Positions 2,934 through 14,789 of a stretch of DNA of 64,000 nucleotides are shown one piece after another. The position numbers and the translations under genes are program-made. The notes beneath the pieces are model-generated. The model did not search any database, was not told the origin of the DNA, and saw nothing but the letters and a program-made list of their open reading frames with translations. Every line of letters starts with the position of its first letter. Within the stretch, counting starts at the first letter, position 1. The stretch is from Squalus acanthias (taxonomy: Eukaryota): the NCBI GenBank assembly GCA_030390025.1, contig CM059432.1:18850001-18914000 (forward strand). The letters are read 5' to 3'.

Positions 2934-3230
2934 CTGGAGGTGAATTTCCGCAGGGATTCTCCCGATCGGTCCACGGTAACTTTGACTTTTGTGCTGGGTT
3001 CCAGGGGGTTTCCGTGGCTCTCCTGGCAAAATGTCGGCACACAATTGGGAGAATCCTCCCAGAAATTCACCCCCTTTATGTCCTGGCAAAGATCATTTTA
3101 CGAACCAGCTGACTAAGCGCCCAATATGGCGGGCAGGAAGCACGCGCCCATTTCTGGCTGGAAGTGCACCGCCCGCCATCTTAGATAAGGTGGTTGCACT
3201 GGTGTCAGGAGTGTACGTCTGGAAAATTCA
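2934..3230. repeat. Degenerate GC-rich MITE-like remnants
   Basis: GAATTTCC...GAAATTCACCCC ends; the CCAATATGGCGGGC...CCCGCCAT segment is shared with 1915-1975. Confidence 0.4.
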
Positions 3231-4875: not shown

Positions 4876-6514
4876 GGCACAGAAATTAAAGACTGAGGGG
4901 TAGAAATTAGGTCGCGCCCCATTTGGGGCGCAAATATCGTCTGGACGCAAATATTAGCGCCTGGCGCTAATTATCGGCACTGACTGGAAACTTCACTTTT
5001 ACCGCCCCAGGAGGTGAGTGGAGCGCTAAAGCAGGCGCTGCACACCTGTCTTAAGGCGCAAAGGCCGAGGAGTGAGGCGCTAACTCAGAGCGCTGGCGAA
5101 GCTCATGTAATGTCAGTCAGCAATGGAACACACACACAATGGCACGGGCCAGTTCTTAAAGGGGATGGTTAATCTTGCTTTCCATCCACATCCTGTTCAT
5201 TGCAGCCTTGAATCTCGGCCTGGAGAGACTTGCACATCAAATGTGCTGGAAAGAACAATGGAGAGTACCAGGCAAAGAGCTCAGAGTGCAGCTCCCACAG
5301 TCTCTGCTAAATCGATACAAGGAATGGCAAATCAAAATGAACCTGCAAAGTGCTGCTCAGTACCCAAAACTCCTTCACACAACGTTGAATCTCTCCAGAA
5401 GTCTCTCCCTCTCTCTCTCAGAATGCGTAGTTCAAAAATGCCACCAACAATAAAAGACAGGAAGAGGCCCCCTTTAAATAGCGCCCCCCCCAGCCCCACA
5501 GCGATTGATAGCGTTCCAGTCTTCTGGTCGTTGGATGCGCCAGGCGGTAAGGCAGGGGGCGCCACTCAATTTCCGCTCCGGGGCGCCACAAGGGCGTTGC
5601 ACCATGGAATGATGTCACAATCTGCGCGTGCAGGTGGTCGCAGCGGTAAGTTTTAGCGCCGCCGCACAATGTCAAGTTAAGTTCCCGAGCGGTGCAAACA
5701 TCGCTGCGCCCGGGCGTTAGCGGCTTTGCGCCCCATTAGCGCTCTCTTAAGGCGCTAACGGGAGGCGCAACCAACTGAATTTTTACCCCTGAGTGTTGAC
5801 GCGGGGGTAAGGCTTCCCCGCGATCTCTCACTCCGCGTTGGCTTTTTCAGTTCCAGCTCGCACGAACTTGATGTTCTAGACATCAGCTGGGCAGTGCTTG
5901 CGTATCCCACCGGCGTAGTGAATTCGTGCGAGCTGTGGGATCACGTGACTCAGTTAGAGCCAATGGCAGCACACCATCTTCCATTCATAAGTTTCACATA
6001 AGTGCTGTGAGAGCTATGAATCTTACACACCCCCAAAATAACAGCTAAACCTCAATTAAATTTTTAAAAAAAACCATCACATTAATAAAATAAGTATAGT
6101 TAAATAAATTAACCATTTTAAATAAAAAATTAAATTTTTGAAAAAATTTAAAATCTTTTAAAAAGTTATAAAAATAAACTTACCTGTCTTTAAAGTCTCT
6201 AAAAAAGATATACCTGTTAAAAAAAATTCAAAATAATACTTAATTCACAACTTACCTTGTTAAAAGTGGGTCTTACTCCTCCTTTTTTATTTCTAAAATC
6301 TTCCGTACTTACCTGCGCGTCCAAAGCACTAAGTGCACAGCGTGCGCGCAGCCTGTAGCGCGCACGTGATGCACCGAGGAACCGCCCCCTTTTCCAAAAA
6401 CCAAGTGCCGGTTTTCAGCGCATGCGCAGTGCATGCAGAAAACCGGCAATTGGAGACAGAATACGCGAGAGTACACAGTGCGTACTCTCGCGTCGCGGGA
6501 CTAATTTTTGGGCC
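4876..6514. mobile_element. Harbinger-type MITE, family B, copy 1 (contains a family A copy)
   Basis: TIRs GGCACAGAAATT / AATTTTTGGGCC; flanks ACT/AAT (imperfect 3-bp TSD); homologous to 24840-25602 and 39273-40036. Confidence 0.75.
4897..5789. mobile_element. Harbinger-type MITE, family A (GC-rich)
   Basis: TIRs GGGGTAGAAATTAG / CTGAATTTTTACCCC; TSD TGA at 4894-96 and 5790-92; collinear with 19654-20537. Confidence 0.85.
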
Positions 6515-9500
6515 AATATCTTTAAATTCCTTTCTGAATAAAATATCAACAGAGCCTTATAATGATCTTTTAGCTTATATTTAAAATACTCTTTTAGATT
6601 GATTCTCCTCCCCTTAAAAACCAGAGCATTCTTTCTTTGCACAATCACGAATCTAGCCAAACTGAACTCAGGCAGACTCTCCTGCAATCCCCATCTCAAA
6701 ATTGAGTCCCACGGGATTCCTATTCTCGCTTTTCGGTCCCCACCCAGCAAAAAAACCTCACACAACTGTCGAACATAGTACTTAAAATCATTTAACTGCG
6801 GACATAACACCAGTAAATGGATAGAGTCTCATCCCGTGTCCCACACACTGGGCAAGTTGCCCCCTCCACTCGCCCAATCTTACAAAAGACCGTCATGGTA
6901 AAAATCCGGTTATGAGCCAATTTGAAATCCAGTTCAATCCACCCTGGACATTTAAAATTCACCCACACTCCCTTCCAAATCCTGTTAAAGTCCAGCTGTG
7001 GGTATATACTCTGCCAAAACTCCTGACCAGCAGGTGTCTTGAATCTCCATTCTCTAAATACCTCATAGAAATCTCGAGTATTACAATTGTCAAATTGGAC
7101 CAACTCTAAAGACAGCAGAAAGCTGGGAAAAGCGGGACGCATTTTACTTCCTTTGGAGATTTCCGCATTTATTTCTTCCATCTAATCCTGTGGCATTGCC
7201 CTCACAATCTTCTCATACATGATCATGATTGCTTTTTCCTCCACCTCCTGATCCTCCTCCCACACCATGTCCCTCACTATCGCTTCCGGCAACCAATCTG
7301 GATTTACCTCATATAATACATCTTTCACACATATAATACCAGCTTTTAGAAAAGCTTGATTAAATAAAACCTCTCCTTCGATGTTGACCCACCTGTTCAA
7401 AAATAAGGGTTGTTCTAAAAATTCCTCAGCACCCCTGGGCATAAACTGCACACTTTCTAAAAATTGAGCCCAAGTCTCTACAACCCCCTTATAAAACCTA
7501 GGGAGAGGTTTAATCGAGTTCAAAAACATATTATTGTATTCCATATACAATATCCCCTGCCCTCCTATCCCACTTCGTTTTAAAAAATGCTAAAAATAAC
7601 TCTTCCAAAAACTTGTATTTGACTTCTGAAGAAATCTCTTCACCCATTTGATTCTAAAGGATTTTTTCTTCAAGTCAATATCTGGGAAATTGAGTCCTCC
7701 CTGATTTCTACGTCCAATGATTGTATTGTAAGCCACCAAGGCTGGTTTCCCTTCCCATAAAAACCTCACACAAGCCTCTCAGATGGACTTTTCCGCCCAC
7801 TCAGGAATATCCTCCACCATCAATAAGTACCATAGCTTAGATAGCAGGAGAGCGGACAGCACTGTCGCTCTTCCTTGCACTTTCAACCACCTTCTTTCCC
7901 ATCTTTCCAAAATCTTTTTAATTTTCATAACCTTTGGTTCCCAATTTAATTGATCCACTTCATCCTTGTCTTTCTTGCACCCCATATGCACCCCCAGAAC
8001 TTCCAAAACCTCCACCACCTTAAAGGGACTTTCCTCCAACCATTCCCCCTACCCCTTCCTGCAACCAGGCATTGGGACTTACTATAATTTACTCTGGCTC
8101 CTGAAGCTCTACAATAGTCCTCCACTACATCCATAGCTTTCCTCGCTGACTCCCCATTTCTCAATGTTAAGGTTGTGTCATCTGCATATTGGTGTATCAC
8201 CGACACCAGCCCGGAACTGGGAACCGCAATCCCAACTACACTTTGTTTCTTTCGCATCATGTAACCTAATGGTTCTGCTACCAATGTGTACAACAATGGG
8301 GCCAGGGGACAACCCTGTCTCACTGACCTCTGTATCGGAAAATACTTGGATAAAAAACCATTACATTTAACGCAGCTAAATATGTTTGTATAAAAAATCC
8401 TTAACCACTCAATGAAATTTTCCCCAAAACCAAATGCTTCTAAAACCATCAATAAAAACTCATGAGAGACCCTATCAAAGGCTTTCTCTTGATCTATCTT
8501 TAATACATAAGACTCCCTCCCACTCTCTTCCATGAGCTCTATCGGATCTCGGATTGAGACCACAGAGTCTGCGATGTCCCGGCCTATGACTCCATAGGAC
8601 TGAGAGGGTAAAACTATCTGCGGCATCACCTCCTTCATACGATTTACCATAACCCTCGCCAAGATCTTATAATCCACATTTAATAATGTGATGGGCCTCC
8701 AATTCTTCAGATCCCTTCTATCCCCTTTATTTTTATAAGCTAAGCTTATGATACCTCTCCTCATAGATGGGGCCAGGCTTCCCTCAATTTTAATCTCCTT
8801 AAAAACCTCTAAGAGCAATGGACTTAAAATCTCAAACAATTCTTTGTAAAATTCTGCACTTAGTCCATCGGACCTTGGGCTTTTCCCCCCCTTCATTCCA
8901 CTTATTGCTACTTTTATTTCCGCTAATCCTACTTCTTTGTCACACATGCTTCTCTCATCCTCCTTTAAACCCTCTTCAATAAAAGCATTAACCTTCTCCA
9001 TCACCAAATTGGAAATGTCTTCTTTTGTATATAACTCTTGATAAAAGCTGCTAGCCGCCTCTACAATCTCCCCACTTTCATTAATGATCTTCTCCCCAAC
9101 CTTCAACTCTCCAATTAATGATAATCTCTGTCGCAGCTTCTCTTGCTCTAGAAAATATCTAGTGCATCTTTCGCCCTCCAATGCATCTCTAGCCTTTGCA
9201 CGGAGAATGGCCCCCTTGCATTTTTCAGCTTGCAATAGTTCCCTTAAAACCCGGAACTTAGTCTCAGCTCCCTTATCCCCTCCGTCAACTGCTTTACAGA
9301 CATCCATAAACCTTTTGTTTATATTCTCTTCTCGACGCCGGTTAGCCGCCGCTCTCTCTTTCCCATAACGTACTGAAAAAACTTTTACCTCGTATTTAAA
9401 ATTGTCCCACCAAACTCTTCTTTCTTTCAAGAGCAAAGGTTCCTTCCGAGCATTCTTTATTATATTTAAAATCCCTTCTTTATAAGCAATTTCTTTCAAG

Positions 9501-9569
9501 TATTGATTGTTTAAAATCCACACCCCTGTCCATGTTAAACCAGGAGGGTAAGAAGGTCTGAAGCAGTGG

Positions 9570-9822
9570 CTTCTTCAGAATTCAGAGCGTGGTAAGAAGG
9601 TGGAACTCACTACCACATGGAATAGTCGAGGCGAATAATATAGATGCATTTAAGTGGAAGCTAGATAAGTACCTGAGGGAGAAAGAAATAGAAGGATACG
9701 TTGATAGGGTGAGATGAAGTAAGGCAGGAGGAGGATTGTGTGGAGCATAAACCCCGGCATAGACCTGTTGGACTAAATTGTCTGTTTCTGTACTGTAAAA
9801 CTCTGTAATTCTATGTAATTTA
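9570..9822 (+). mobile_element. Old CR1 3' end remnant
   Basis: WNSLP-like coding remnant and TAATTCTATG tail. Confidence 0.6.
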
Positions 9823-10000
9823 TAAGCTGATAAGATGTTCCCTCCTACAAGGCAGCATTGATCCTGATAAATGTTCTAATTCCTCCAGGTCCAGTGCTTA
9901 TTAGGTAGTAACGTCCATCTATGAGGTAACGTCCAATTAGGAGCTACTTCTTTTTTGCAGAAAGTCTCCGATCTCTGGAACAAGTTGCAGCCACATACAG

Positions 10001-10194
10001 TGTCGTAAGAATGAGCCTTACGCGTGGTGAACTTAAAGTAAGCTTTAATCAACTAAAAAGGTGCTACATACAAAAGAGGTCTTACTCTATGCCTCTCCCG
10101 GATCCAACTGATCAGTCCAGTATTTATCCTGGACTAATCACAGGAAGTGATGCAATAAAGTTCGAGTCACAGGAAGCTGTATTGTGTTACCACA
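10001..10194 (-). repeat. 3' LTR
   Basis: Identical by eye to 14276-14469; adjacent polypurine tract GGGGGGGGGAGAA on the minus strand (10195-10207). Confidence 0.95.
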
Positions 10195-10258
10195 TTCTCC
10201 CCCCCCCAAAAGATTAGGAGACCGGGATGAAGTTCGAGTCACAGGAAGCTGTATTGAG

Positions 10259-13200
10259 TTACCACATTCTCCCTCCATTTCGTAGCCGCTGGACGAGGGA
10301 GAGCCGCACCCGTTTGGGTTCTCGTAGCGGTAGAGGGCCCCTAGCCCGTTTACCCGCCGCGGGCCGTGGACCAGAGTCCGAGTGATCCAGCCCGCTCTGT
10401 GAGGGGTCAGAACGATCCTGACTGTGTACTGGTGCCCGAACGGGTGTCGGGCAGGGCTGTGGCAGATCCGTATCCGAGCGTACGGTACAGGGTGGATCGT
10501 GGCTGCGCGTGCGAGCCCCGACGGGCTCATAGTCAGTCTGCCCCAGGTCGGCACGCTGGAGTGAGGTACCAGCCGGCGTCAGATCCAGATCGTGATGAGA
10601 GGCACCTGGCGAGCCCAGAGATGTGCCTGGTACAATATCATCCCCTGGTGTCCCTCTATGTTTCGGCGGGCAGGGAGCCAGATCCCGCAATGACACGGTA
10701 GATTCCCGACCGTCAGGATACCGAATATAGGCGTAGGTAGGGTTGACGTCAGTGAGCTCAACCTCATCTACCAGGGGGTCATTCTTAGACGCCCGAACAT
10801 ATCTTCGGAGTAGCACTGGTCCCGGTGCAGTCAGCCACGACGGGAGAGATATCCCATAGGATGAGCGACGCTGAAATCGGAAGAACCGTTCAAGAGGCGT
10901 CGTATTTGTGGCGGTCGAAAGGAGGGACCGTGTGGAGTGTAATGTGTCTGGAAGTACTGCTTCCCATTGCTGGTTGGGTAGGCCCCGAGATCTCAAAGCT
11001 AGACGTACCGCATTCCAGATGATAGCATTAAAACGCTCGACTTGCCCATTCCCGACCGGGTGATAAGGCGTCGTTTTGCTGGCAGCAATACCCCGTTCCG
11101 AGAGATAGGCCTTGAGTTCTCCTGACATAAAAGAAGGGCCCCGATCCGAATGAACATAGGATGCCATGCCACAGAAAGCAAATACCTGCTCAAGGCAGCT
11201 GATAACCGTGGTCGTCAGCATATTGGGGCAGGGAAAGGCAAACGGAAAACGGGAATACTCATCGACCATGGTCAATAGATAAGTGTTGCGAGTTGAAGAG
11301 GGCAACGGCCCCTTAAAATCGATGCTAAGCCGTTGCATTGGCTGGGTCGCATGTATGAGTATACCACCCGAGGGGCGGAAAAACCGAGGTTTCAATTCCG
11401 CACAGACTCTGCAGTCCGAGCACATCTTCTTTACATCCCCGGTAGAGAATGGGAGATTTCGGGACCGCACGAAGTGTAGCATGCGAGTAACGCCCGGAAG
11501 ACACAACCCATCATGGATGTCTACGAGCGTAGAGGGTGCCATGGCGGAGCAGAATGCTCGTGTGAGGGTATCCGGAGCCACATTCTCCTTGCCAGGTCGA
11601 TAGTGGATGGTGTAACCAAAAGAGGCCAATTCCAGCCGCCAAAGCTGGATTTTATTATTTTTAATTTTGGTCCGTTTTCGATTATCGAGCATGAAGGCGA
11701 CCGATCGCTGGTCCGTGATTAAGGTAAAGTGCTGGCGAGCTAGGAGATGACTCCACTTCCGTACTGCCTCTGTGATAGCTGTAGCTTCTTTCTCGACTGG
11801 AGGATAATGTAGCTCAGCCCCTTGAAAAGTCCTGGACAAAAATGCCACCGGACAACCTTCCTGATTCAGAGTGGCCGAGATCGCCACCTCCGAGGCATCA
11901 CACTCAACGACAAAAGGAAGACTCTCATCGATGGAGTGAAGAGTCGCTTTCTCCAACTGTTTTTTCAGGAGTTTAAAGGCTGCAACAGCCGCTGTGTCTA
12001 GTGGGAATGTGCTGGCCTTCAGTAGAGGTTGGATTCGGTCCGAGAAGTTAGGAATCCATTTAGCATAGTATGCAAACAGGCCGAGGGCCCGGCGCAAGGA
12101 GGCCGGATTCTTAGGTGGCGGGAGTTCTTGGAGTGGGCGAAGCCTTTCAGGGTCAGGTTTAATGATGCCATTGCCCACACAATAGCCAAGGATGTTGATG
12201 GTTGGTTGTGACTCAATGGATTTAGCCGCATTTAATGTCAAATTACGGTGCTGGAGTGCGTCCCAAAATCGTTGGAGATTGGCGTCATGTTCCCGCTGAT
12301 TGCGACCTGCGACAGTAATATTGTCCAGATAAGGAAACGTATCCTTCAAGTCTTCCTGTTTGACCAGGTCATCCATTGCTCGCTGGAAGACAGCCACTCC
12401 ATTAGTGACCCCAAAGGGGAGGTGACGAAATTGATACAGCCGTCCATTGGCTTCAAAGGCCGTCTACTGCTTGTCTGAGACCTTCAAGGGTACCTGATGA
12501 TAGGCACTTTTTAGATCATATGTTGAGAACACCGTGTACTCAGCCAATTAATTAACCATATCATCGATGCGCGGCAATGGGTATGCGTCCAAGTCCGTAT
12601 ATTGATTGATGGTCTGTGAATAGTCAATGCACAGCCGTTTCTTGTGAGGTTGTAGAGGGTTCTTAACAATAACGACCTGGGCGCGCCATGGTGACGAACA
12701 AGGCTCGATGATATCCTCTGCTAAAAGCCGAGAAATCTCAGCCGCAATAAAAGACTGGTCTTCCTGACTGAAACGTCGTGACTTTGTTATAATCGGTTTG
12801 CATCGAGGAGGGATACTGGAAAACAGTGAGGGTTCATCCAGTGAAGTTGCTGACAATGCACAGAACGGTAATCGAGGTAGTATATTAGAAATAGTGAGTT
12901 CAGGTTTGGATCCGCCGAACTCAATGGTGAGCTTCTTATGCTGCTTTTGAAAATCCAGCCCTAAGATAAGATCACTACATAAGTCCTTGAGCACCGAAAG
13001 CCGGGTGGAGGGATACCTGCGACGATTAAGTGTTATTTCAACCATACAAAAGCCAGAAATTCTGGTATTAAGTGATGACTGAGCCATCGCAACTGCCTGG
13101 TCCGATGGGAAAACATGTAGCTTTAACTCTGCAACAATCTGTTCCCTAATGAAACTATCAGTGCTACCTGAGTCAATTAAGGCATCTAAAGTATGTCCAT

Positions 13201-14197
13201 TAATTGATGCTTTTGTAGCTGCATGGAATAGGTTCTGAGGACAAGCAGCTGTAATTGGTGTCGTTGCACAAAGAGTGGCTGAAACTCTTGGTGTGTTTCT
13301 TCGAGAGGAAGCACGATAGATTTTAGCCGGAACATCTTGATAGGCCCTTACCGGGGCAGTTCGGTAGGACTTAGCTTGATAAGCCCTCGTAGAGGCTCTT
13401 GATAGGCAAACCTTTGCAAAATGACCCTTATTGTTGCAATGACTGCAAAACGCATTGCGAGCAGGGCAGAATTTCCGAGGGTGGAACTCATCACCACAAA
13501 AGAAGCATTTCTTAGATTGCCAAGAGGCTGCCACAGTGGGGTTATCATCCTCTTCATCTGTGAAGTCATCAGATTGATCGTCAGGGATAAAGACCTCCCT
13601 AATAGAGTTCACCTGTGGCCTCTTAAATTGCCTGACTGTAGTTAAGGCAGTAGACCGAGGTCTGGGCACTGTATAAAGGTCTGCATTTCTTTTTGCCAGA
13701 TCTAGAGAGCAAGCCATGTCATAAGCTTTCTGAAGCTCAAGTGTCTTACTTTCCAGTAGACGCTGGCGTATAAATGGGGAGGCAAGCCCGCAGATGAAAG
13801 CATCACGGATCATTTCTTCATGGTACAGCTCAGCTGAGGCCGCCCGAAAGTTACAGTCCATACTAAGTCTGCGAAGCTCTTGGAGGAATTTATCAATGGA
13901 TTCCTCCGGCCCTTGTTGGGCTGTAGCTAGTAGATGTCTGGCATAGACCTCATTCGTTGTCTTAGTATATAGTCTCTTAAGCGTCCGAATTGCCTCCTCG
14001 TAACTGTCCCATTTCTCCACATACTGAAATACATTCGGGGTGACACAGTTGATGAGTATCCGCAACTTTGAGTTATCATCAGCCTTACAATATTCAAGAA
14101 AATTGTCAAACGTGCGATACCAGTGTTTCCACACCTTACCGGCTGCTGGGGTGTTTGGGTCCAAGTCAAGACGCGATGGTTTAAGGATGTTTTCCAT
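10259..14197 (-). pseudogene. Single-frame gag-pol polyprotein with two in-frame stops in RT
   Basis: Zinc knuckles (CFFC..H..C, CSHCNNKGHFAKVC), protease LIDSGS, RT YPLP and YLDN, RNase H CDAS, integrase SIDF/HSDRG/VERFN; stops at 12548-50 and 12464-66 in the same frame. Confidence 0.9.
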
Positions 14198-14275
14198 GAT
14201 GGGTGATTCCCTGGATCCTTAGTTCCGAGTTCGTCCAAAAAGTTTGAGTGCGAAGTTTCCCAAAGTTGATTAAAT

Positions 14276-14469
14276 TGTCGTAAGAATGAGCCTTACGCGT
14301 GGTGAACTTAAAGTAAGCTTTAATCAACTAAAAAGGTGCTACATACAAAAGAGGTCTTACTCTATGCCTCTCCCGGATCCAACTGATCAGTCCAGTATTT
14401 ATCCTGGACTAATCACAGGAAGTGATGCAATAAAGTTCGAGTCACAGGAAGCTGTATTGTGTTACCACA
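14276..14469 (-). repeat. 5' LTR
   Basis: Identical to the 3' LTR; GATAAATA TATA-like and ATTAAA poly(A)-like motifs on the minus strand. Confidence 0.95.
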
Positions 14470-14789
14470 TACAGTGAGTGCAGAGTCACTGCAAGCATTT
14501 AAAAGGGAGCTCGACAAGTTCTTGTGAGAGACAAACGTCTCGACGTATAAAGTCCATGTGGGTCATTGGGGGCCAGTGTCACTTGTCACCGTGATGTACT
14601 GGACCTTGCTTGATCACTTTCGGAAGTGGTGGGGTGGGGGGGCGGTCAGGGGGCAGTCAGAGAGGAACTTCCCAGAGTTTTTTCTTAAATTGGCCGAAGG
14701 TTTTCTCTCTGTTATTTTTGCCTCGCCCAGGAGATTGCGTGACTGTGGGAGAAGGAGGATGATGAAGTAAGTTCCATAATGTTTTGCCT

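Follow-up and report, generated by a model that had tools for sequence, protein, structure and literature searches.

In the fission yeast retrotransposon Tf1, the first 11 nt of the mRNA reportedly pair with the PBS (primer-binding site) and so prime reverse transcription, and the duplex so formed measures 11 bp, as does the one we describe here. Self-priming has been shown for Tf1 (PMC4600332, PMC10085805), whose PBS is copied into the cDNA ends (PMC11042837), and it is also attributed to the rest of the Tf1/sushi group, in hosts that range from fungi to vertebrates (PMC6317226, PMC10085805); predicted self-primers are also described for Tcn1 chromoviruses and for the plant TAR lineage of Ty1/copia elements, with Houba and Osr-1 (PMC6317226). 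So far self-priming has counted as a distinguishing trait of the Tf1/sushi chromoviruses, which one copia lineage of plants is predicted to share. The TAR and Tcn1 predictions rest, like ours, on complementarity between the long terminal repeat (LTR) and the site (PMC6317226); unlike the present clade, these elements belong to another superfamily or clade and have plant hosts, and they indicate that self-priming is not confined to one clade. Sequences that do not match a tRNA also occupy the primer-site position in fungal GalEa copia elements, as the Conserved Hairpin Site (PMC5445492), and in Dictyostelium Skipper, as a polypyrimidine site (PMC5006619); the authors of those two papers found no complement within the LTR, whereas the clade that we describe has an LTR complement that covaries with the site. 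We report here a Ty3/Gypsy element of Squalus acanthias whose primer-site position is complementary to its own LTR, and we consider it quite probable, from sequence comparisons and by analogy with Tf1, that the element primes in a Tf1-like manner with its own LTR arm instead of a tRNA.

The window analysed here, a stretch of 64,000 nucleotides from the S. acanthias genome, contains a young Ty3/Gypsy LTR element at positions 10001-14469 on the minus strand, to which all features of the element given below belong. The genome also contains an intact match to RAG2 (E 4e-147), which marks the host as a jawed vertebrate. Its 5' LTR (14276..14469, 194 bp, TG...CA) and its 3' LTR (10001..10194) are identical, with 0 differences along the 194-bp pair, and it is flanked by a 5-bp target-site duplication, CTGTA (upstream copy at 14470..14474, downstream copy at 9996-10000). 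LTRs with TG...CA, the target-site duplication and a polypurine tract (10195..10207) are all present, as found in Ty3/Gypsy LTR retrotransposons, and so is the domain order protease-RT-RNaseH-integrase, which Tf1/sushi elements share; the best PDB match is Ty3 (E 4e-55). These domains, preceded by gag, lie in a single frame (10259..14197) that is without a chromodomain and that is interrupted in the window copy by in-frame stops in the RT region, at 12548-12550 and 12464-12466. We also note that, 72 bp upstream of the 3' LTR, there is another polypurine tract, behind which the first LTR bases are repeated at 94% identity (10227-10276); this second tract overlaps the end of the reading frame, and a doubled tract and LTR start resembling those of the window element are seen at another locus (L039).

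Past the 5' LTR the minus strand reads CA, a single A, TTTAATCAACT and then TTGGG, and TGG is absent. The single A is a lone unpaired spacer base (14275) between the LTR end and the primer-binding-site position (14264..14274), whose 11 bases match, in reverse complement and without exception, LTR bases 14319-14329; the latter (LTR positions 141-151) are the arm, the predicted self-primer, and the 3' LTR has its own copy of the arm at 10044-10054. An 11-nt self-complementary site without TGG, as claimed in a preliminary description of this DNA, is therefore confirmed to the base. The absence of a tRNA site, together with an LTR stretch that complements the site right after the 5' LTR, is described as well for Tf1, Tf2, Tj1 and vertebrate sushi-ichi (PMC4600332, PMC10085805, PMC6317226). 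When the LTR was shuffled under a dinucleotide model, a complement of at least 11 bases to the post-LTR stretch arose by chance in 5 of 20,000 trials. The predicted fold of the 66 bases that run from the arm to the site has an energy of -15.3 kcal/mol (z -3.64), which 1 of 200 shuffles equalled, and longer folds that include flanks are no better than shuffles (z -1.42 and -0.79), so the fold signal is local to these 66 bases. A short predicted hairpin (P2, 14306..14318) follows the arm without a gap, so that the helix of arm and site would have this hairpin stacked on it, and a second predicted hairpin of 7 bp (14279..14297) lies close to the LTR end. The bases just outside the duplex (14256-14263 and 14330-14334) vary in G/A content among host copies, opposite a T run, and a diverged contig in sequencing run X4 has a different run there; these variable bases may be a fraying extension of the helix.

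Relatives of the window element are found well beyond the shark. A gag-region search returned 175 proteins, most of which consist of one frame some 1,200 residues long, and none of the 120 listed among these 175 homologues has a chromodomain; the named relatives come from crustaceans, insects and nematodes, including Palaemon, Armadillidium, Macrosteles and Hyposmocoma, and cluster members come from corals. Scans of metagenome and MAG contigs yielded 75 loci, 36 of them with a gag start, and scans of viral contigs found no relative. A perfect duplex of 10-18 bp that starts one base after the CA is present at 27 of the 36 non-host loci, with letters that are specific to each family; the one-base spacing of all 27 was set by the design of the scan, and in a control with shuffled upstream DNA 10 bp were reached in 8 of 6,900 trials. 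Five loci (L041, L046, L063, L067 and L075) have duplexes with one defect, which takes the form of a mismatch or G-U pair, of a small deletion, or of a spacer two bases long; seven bases pair at L079, and L058 and L112 have no LTR within reach. One of the scanned loci, L049, has an RT nearly identical to that of an Armadillidium protein. As separate observations, the contig of the clade member L053 starts with CA-A-TGG, which resembles a tRNA-type site, and has its LTR-arm complement about 29 bases further on, an arrangement that weighs against our reading but might reflect a state of transition or come from the assembly; and L045 and L050, two families that are almost identical and belong to the same contig set, are told apart in the helix by a change on both sides.

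The helix itself shows extensive covariation. Our alignment comprises 17 sequences, about one for each family known at that point, with the imperfect L067 and L079 kept in and near-duplicates left out. Over 14 pairs and 17 families, 95.4% of the 238 cells pair, slid registers of the same alignment pair in at most 49%, and two-sided changes occur at 10 of the 14 pairs (38 cells); none of 500 shuffles matched any of these measures, a count that does not amount to a probability, the 17 rows being related and hand-chosen. RNAalifold arrives unaided at the same helix, with a covariation term of -2.76, and G-U pairs make up 2 of the 227 paired cells. Among 23 families, pairs 1-3, next to the LTR end, are A-U in every case (23/23), G-C occupies pair 10 in 21 families, A-U occupies pair 11 in 18, and pairs 6-9 and 12-13 are variable. 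A helix that is fixed at its LTR-side end and variable at its far end is what one would expect if the 3' end of the primer defines the end of the LTR. Pairs 12 and 13, counting back from the arm's 3' end, covary too (7 and 6 two-sided cells, respectively), which together with duplex lengths of 10-18 bp suggests that the RNA partner often extends further 5' than 11 nt; where the duplex measures 16-18 bp it starts in a run of pyrimidines, which does not look like a primer fixed at 11 nt. At pairs 10-11 there are conserved purines, preceded by pyrimidines, that resemble a putative initiator.

Arm and site are separated by loops of 24-68 bases in about twenty families. A second stem of at least 4 pairs follows the arm directly in 13 of 17 families, as against 5.0 expected under a definition that was set after the predicted folds had been viewed, and 10 of its 70 pairs are G-U, as against 2 of 227 in the arm/site helix. 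The clade differs from Tf1/sushi in that the arm usually overlaps a poly(A) hexamer, the duplex spans 10-18 bp and a local hairpin follows the arm. In Tf1 the primer helix lies within a 'pretzel', a three-duplex fold that includes a duplex of the U5 end with the bases after the primer (PMC10085805); the corresponding duplex is seen in 2 of 17 families, with 1.3 expected, in a crude test that covers one of the two extra duplexes.

The exact arm-site pair occurs at 3,219 places in the S. acanthias genome and the reversed-pattern control at 0, and among the arm-site matches listed three kinds of loop mark three families. Both 11-mers are kept at all 30 of the loci examined from the DNA search, which are 98-100% identical, so that their shared 11-mers say little. 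A second host family with long open frames, obtained from a protein search in which 38 of 25,133 candidates were scored, has 69% nucleotide identity to the window element and a U3 that cannot be aligned with it, and all 8 of its copies examined have a 13-bp duplex. For three of the eleven columns we looked for copies in which the arm is changed. At the first of these three, the site carries the matching change in 24 of 29 matches with a changed arm, and these compensated copies form a host subfamily marked by a small loop insertion. Eight compensated copies were followed to the other end of the element: the change is in both LTRs in 3, has been lost from the 3' LTR in 2 and is unread in 2, and 1 is without a 3' LTR. 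The reverse search at this column gave 14 matches in which the site alone is changed, 9 of them from the compensated subfamily; the 3' LTR is readable in 7 of these 9 and the changed base is still there in 5 of the 7, because of which we read the nine apparent exceptions as largely the result of CpG decay of the 5' arm after insertion.

At the second of the three columns the arm is changed in 15 matches, of which 1 is compensated, and of the 14 copies with a 3' LTR, 12 are changed in the 5' LTR only, with the site unchanged; these 12 changes arose after insertion. One copy, L167, whose LTRs are 100% identical, has the arm change in both LTRs and still has the old site, and is the intermediate that self-priming predicts. 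In another, the old copy L176 (LTR identity 94.9%), arm and site are both changed and the 3' LTR arm is not, a pattern that copying through the primer alone does not produce. The site alone is changed in 22 further copies at this second column, and at the third none of the 4 matches with a changed arm is compensated. Covariation of the two 11-mers, for which the preliminary description had proposed to look, is thus present both between families, at 10 of 14 pairs, and in a host subfamily, in 24 of 29 matches. In a tract of the host genome (G000:C1:566513-575072) we also find three arm-site pairs about 4,247 bp apart on one strand, a spacing that suggests a tandem array of elements with shared LTRs.

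The mechanism has been tested in Tf1 and is inferred for the present clade. By our account, transcription would start at the arm or just before it and the RNA 5' end would fold onto the site. By analogy with Tf1, the element's RNase H would then cut right after the terminal AAA of the arm, at the small hairpin stacked on the helix, which in the window copy would be between 14319 and 14318. RT would extend the freed 3' end to give a strong-stop DNA of about 44 nt, and this DNA would jump to the 3' repeat by way of the stretch, roughly 15-30 nt long, that separates the poly(A) site from the cut. Plus-strand synthesis would copy the primer into the new site, and a change in the arm would in this way pass to the site within two rounds. 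Such copying would account for the speed at which two-sided changes arise as well as for the scarcity of G-U pairs, and the passing of an arm change to the site fits the compensated subfamily and the L167 intermediate. The claim of a self-primed, chromodomain-less Gypsy element in a vertebrate is well supported by the covariation across families, and it is likely, on this comparative evidence and on the Tf1 analogy, that the whole group of about twenty related families starts copying with a piece of its own RNA.

The main doubt about self-priming concerns the start of the RNA and the choice of the arm copy that pairs, since pairs upstream of the initiator-like purine covary and TATA-like words lie 74-91 bases upstream in host families. 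What speaks against the geometry of Tf1 is that a TATA box at the usual distance is missing: TATAWA at -25 to -35 is found in 0 of 23 families, and within 110 bases upstream of the arm it is found in 2 of 23, at -91 and -53. The TATA-like word of the window copy (14397..14403) stands 74 bases upstream of the arm, so a TATA-driven start would fall well before the arm. Raw reads of run X15 gave no match to this stretch, and in contigs from seven other runs we saw no starts, ends or joints, a result that speaks neither for nor against the proposed start. We give a little weight to a scheme that is free of tRNA and does not have the Tf1 geometry, in which the site pairs with the arm copy of the 3' LTR, in an RNA circle or on a second RNA, or in which a longer 5' fragment primes after a start well upstream; in the 3'-copy version the 3' end of the primer would be made near the 3' end of the RNA. 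Besides the TATA-like words in the host families, this scheme would accommodate the covariation of pairs 12-13 upstream of a purine at pair 11, duplexes of up to 18 bp, and an arm that always ends in AAA, in or near a poly(A)-like word. Against it, folding predictions clearly prefer local pairing by the 5' copy (z -3.64), TATA words are absent from most families, and a long unpaired tail, once copied into plus-strand DNA, would be expected to hinder the second jump.

Less probable again is that the helix chiefly masks the poly(A) signal in the 5' LTR and that priming is done by something else. The final six bases of the arm in the window (14319-14324) are the poly(A)-signal hexamer ATTAAA, 12 of 17 families have an arm that terminates, on its 3' side, in AATAAA or ATTAAA, and the site stands behind the 5' LTR only, the fold prediction for the 3' LTR counterpart forming no local arm/site helix. 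However, in 5 of the 17 families the arm has no canonical hexamer and the duplex is kept all the same (2 of these 5 have a hexamer in the loop), and masking requires neither the one-base distance from the LTR end nor perfect Watson-Crick pairing, and would leave the element without a primer site. The suggestion in the preliminary description that the stem hides the signal in the 5' LTR consequently does not hold as its main role, given the families that lack the hexamer in the arm, and keeps at most a secondary one; under self-priming by the LTR arm, concealment of the hexamer would be a side benefit wherever it lies in the arm.

We think it very unlikely that the inverted repeat is kept by template switching or conversion at the DNA level, or serves packaging or dimerisation, and is irrelevant to priming: the two-sided change in L176, limited to the 5' part of one old copy, is of the kind that conversion might leave, but such processes would not pin the repeat at a one-base distance from the LTR end across some twenty families whose loops range from 24 to 68 bases, and the element would be left without any other primer site. 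Priming by a host tRNA half or other small RNA, with the LTR complement incidental, is the least probable reading, since the site, while partly conserved in sequence across families, has no TGG and differs between families at 10 of 14 positions in concert with the arm in the LTR, also within one genome, and an outside tRNA cannot account for changes in the LTR, so that covariation nearly excludes it; the region also has no Rfam match beyond one at E 9.6. The comparison with host tRNAs called for in the preliminary description points the same way, with at most 8 complementary bases in the 7 distinct tRNAs tested, from a sample (63 matches, 30 loci examined, 8 genes called, four amino acids) that is too small to decide. 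Splice-dependent priming was also considered and rejected, as acceptor-like sites upstream of the arm occur in 4 of 23 families, with 3.5 expected, and the unspliced LTR already pairs.

Self-priming by the LTR arm would here belong to a clade other than that of Tf1. Neither of the two window reading frames has a Pfam match to Chromo, SH3_Tf2-1 or Integrase_p58_C, and the same three domains are absent from an open host frame (P0121) and from 13 further proteins of the clade. A FastTree of RT-RNaseH sequences (141 sequences, 392 columns, midpoint root), from which segments of fewer than 340 residues for proteins or 200 for loci were left out, L087 and L109 among them, unites the window element with the two other host families and with every self-complementary locus examined; the clade sits on a long branch, with local support of 0.98. 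P0215, which bears a chromodomain, lies on the opposite side of the tree, as do several proteins in which SH3_Tf2-1 or Integrase_p58_C is present, these being mostly fused multi-element predictions. The RT-RNaseH of our clade thus does not group with chromoviruses, in a comparison made under a midpoint root and with P0215 and its side of the tree standing for the chromoviruses. Unlike Tf1/sushi, then, the present clade has no chromodomain and no SH3/GPY-F module, and its RT-RNaseH groups apart from chromodomain-bearing RT; that the element is a chromodomain-less Gypsy, as had been claimed, is borne out by Pfam. As a chromovirus control in the host, 4 of 16 chromodomain matches were examined and none stands beside an RT. 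The deep-branching L106 has a 15-bp duplex, because of which we conclude that the self-complementary trait is old within the clade, among the branches with DNA examined, which stop short of the deepest sub-branch. The closest relatives of the three host families outside the host are two proteins of Palaemon shrimps (P0067 and P0204; weak support, 0.52), an affinity in the sequences that may point to transfer between aquatic hosts.

Atlas matches of the clade are to unnamed zinc-knuckle gag clusters only, the cluster look-ups being without element names. The zinc-knuckle pattern of the clade's gag looks Mag-like, and Cigr-1, an element of about 4.2 kb with short LTRs and one frame of about 1,200 codons, may be a relative. 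Cigr-1, from Ciona intestinalis, and the Mag lineage are listed as a metazoan Gypsy clade (PMC6238403, PMC8556966). In the literature searched we found no statement on the primer site of Cigr-1 or COS41.3, and motif searches in supplementary files of PMC6238403, PMC8556966, PMC3670739 and PMC3601003 gave no match.

Self-priming in a vertebrate Gypsy element, as proposed in the preliminary description, is supported, but it is not new as something found in a vertebrate, given that vertebrate Tf1/sushi elements are already credited with it (PMC6317226, PMC10085805). The new part is the clade, which is not a chromovirus clade and is spread over many animals; in the literature searched, which was without subscription papers, Repbase and GyDB, we found no report of self-priming in a non-chromovirus Gypsy clade of animals. 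If our reading is right, a separate and successful animal clade self-primes, and the trait either arose again or is older than thought. It is possible, and we offer this tentatively, that this animal-wide clade has an independent and different kind of self-priming, in which one stretch would act as initiator, primer and poly(A) signal, the cut would fall directly behind the signal at a stacked helix-hairpin junction, and the primer, free in length at 10-18 nt, may derive from an arm copy that lies internally or at the 3' side instead of from the 5' end with its cap. About twenty variants of primer and site would also make up a natural set bearing on what RT and RNase H need for cutting and extending an RNA duplex. 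Fragments from the 3' ends of tRNAs have been described to target LTR elements through the tRNA-complementary site (PMC7472051), and elements of the present kind would not present such a site to them. Annotation tools that require a tRNA site will overlook or mislabel such elements. Within the window, a broken RT frame of a non-LTR retrotransposon (6415-9574, minus strand) adjoins the Gypsy element, and many repeats that look CR1-like lie across the window.
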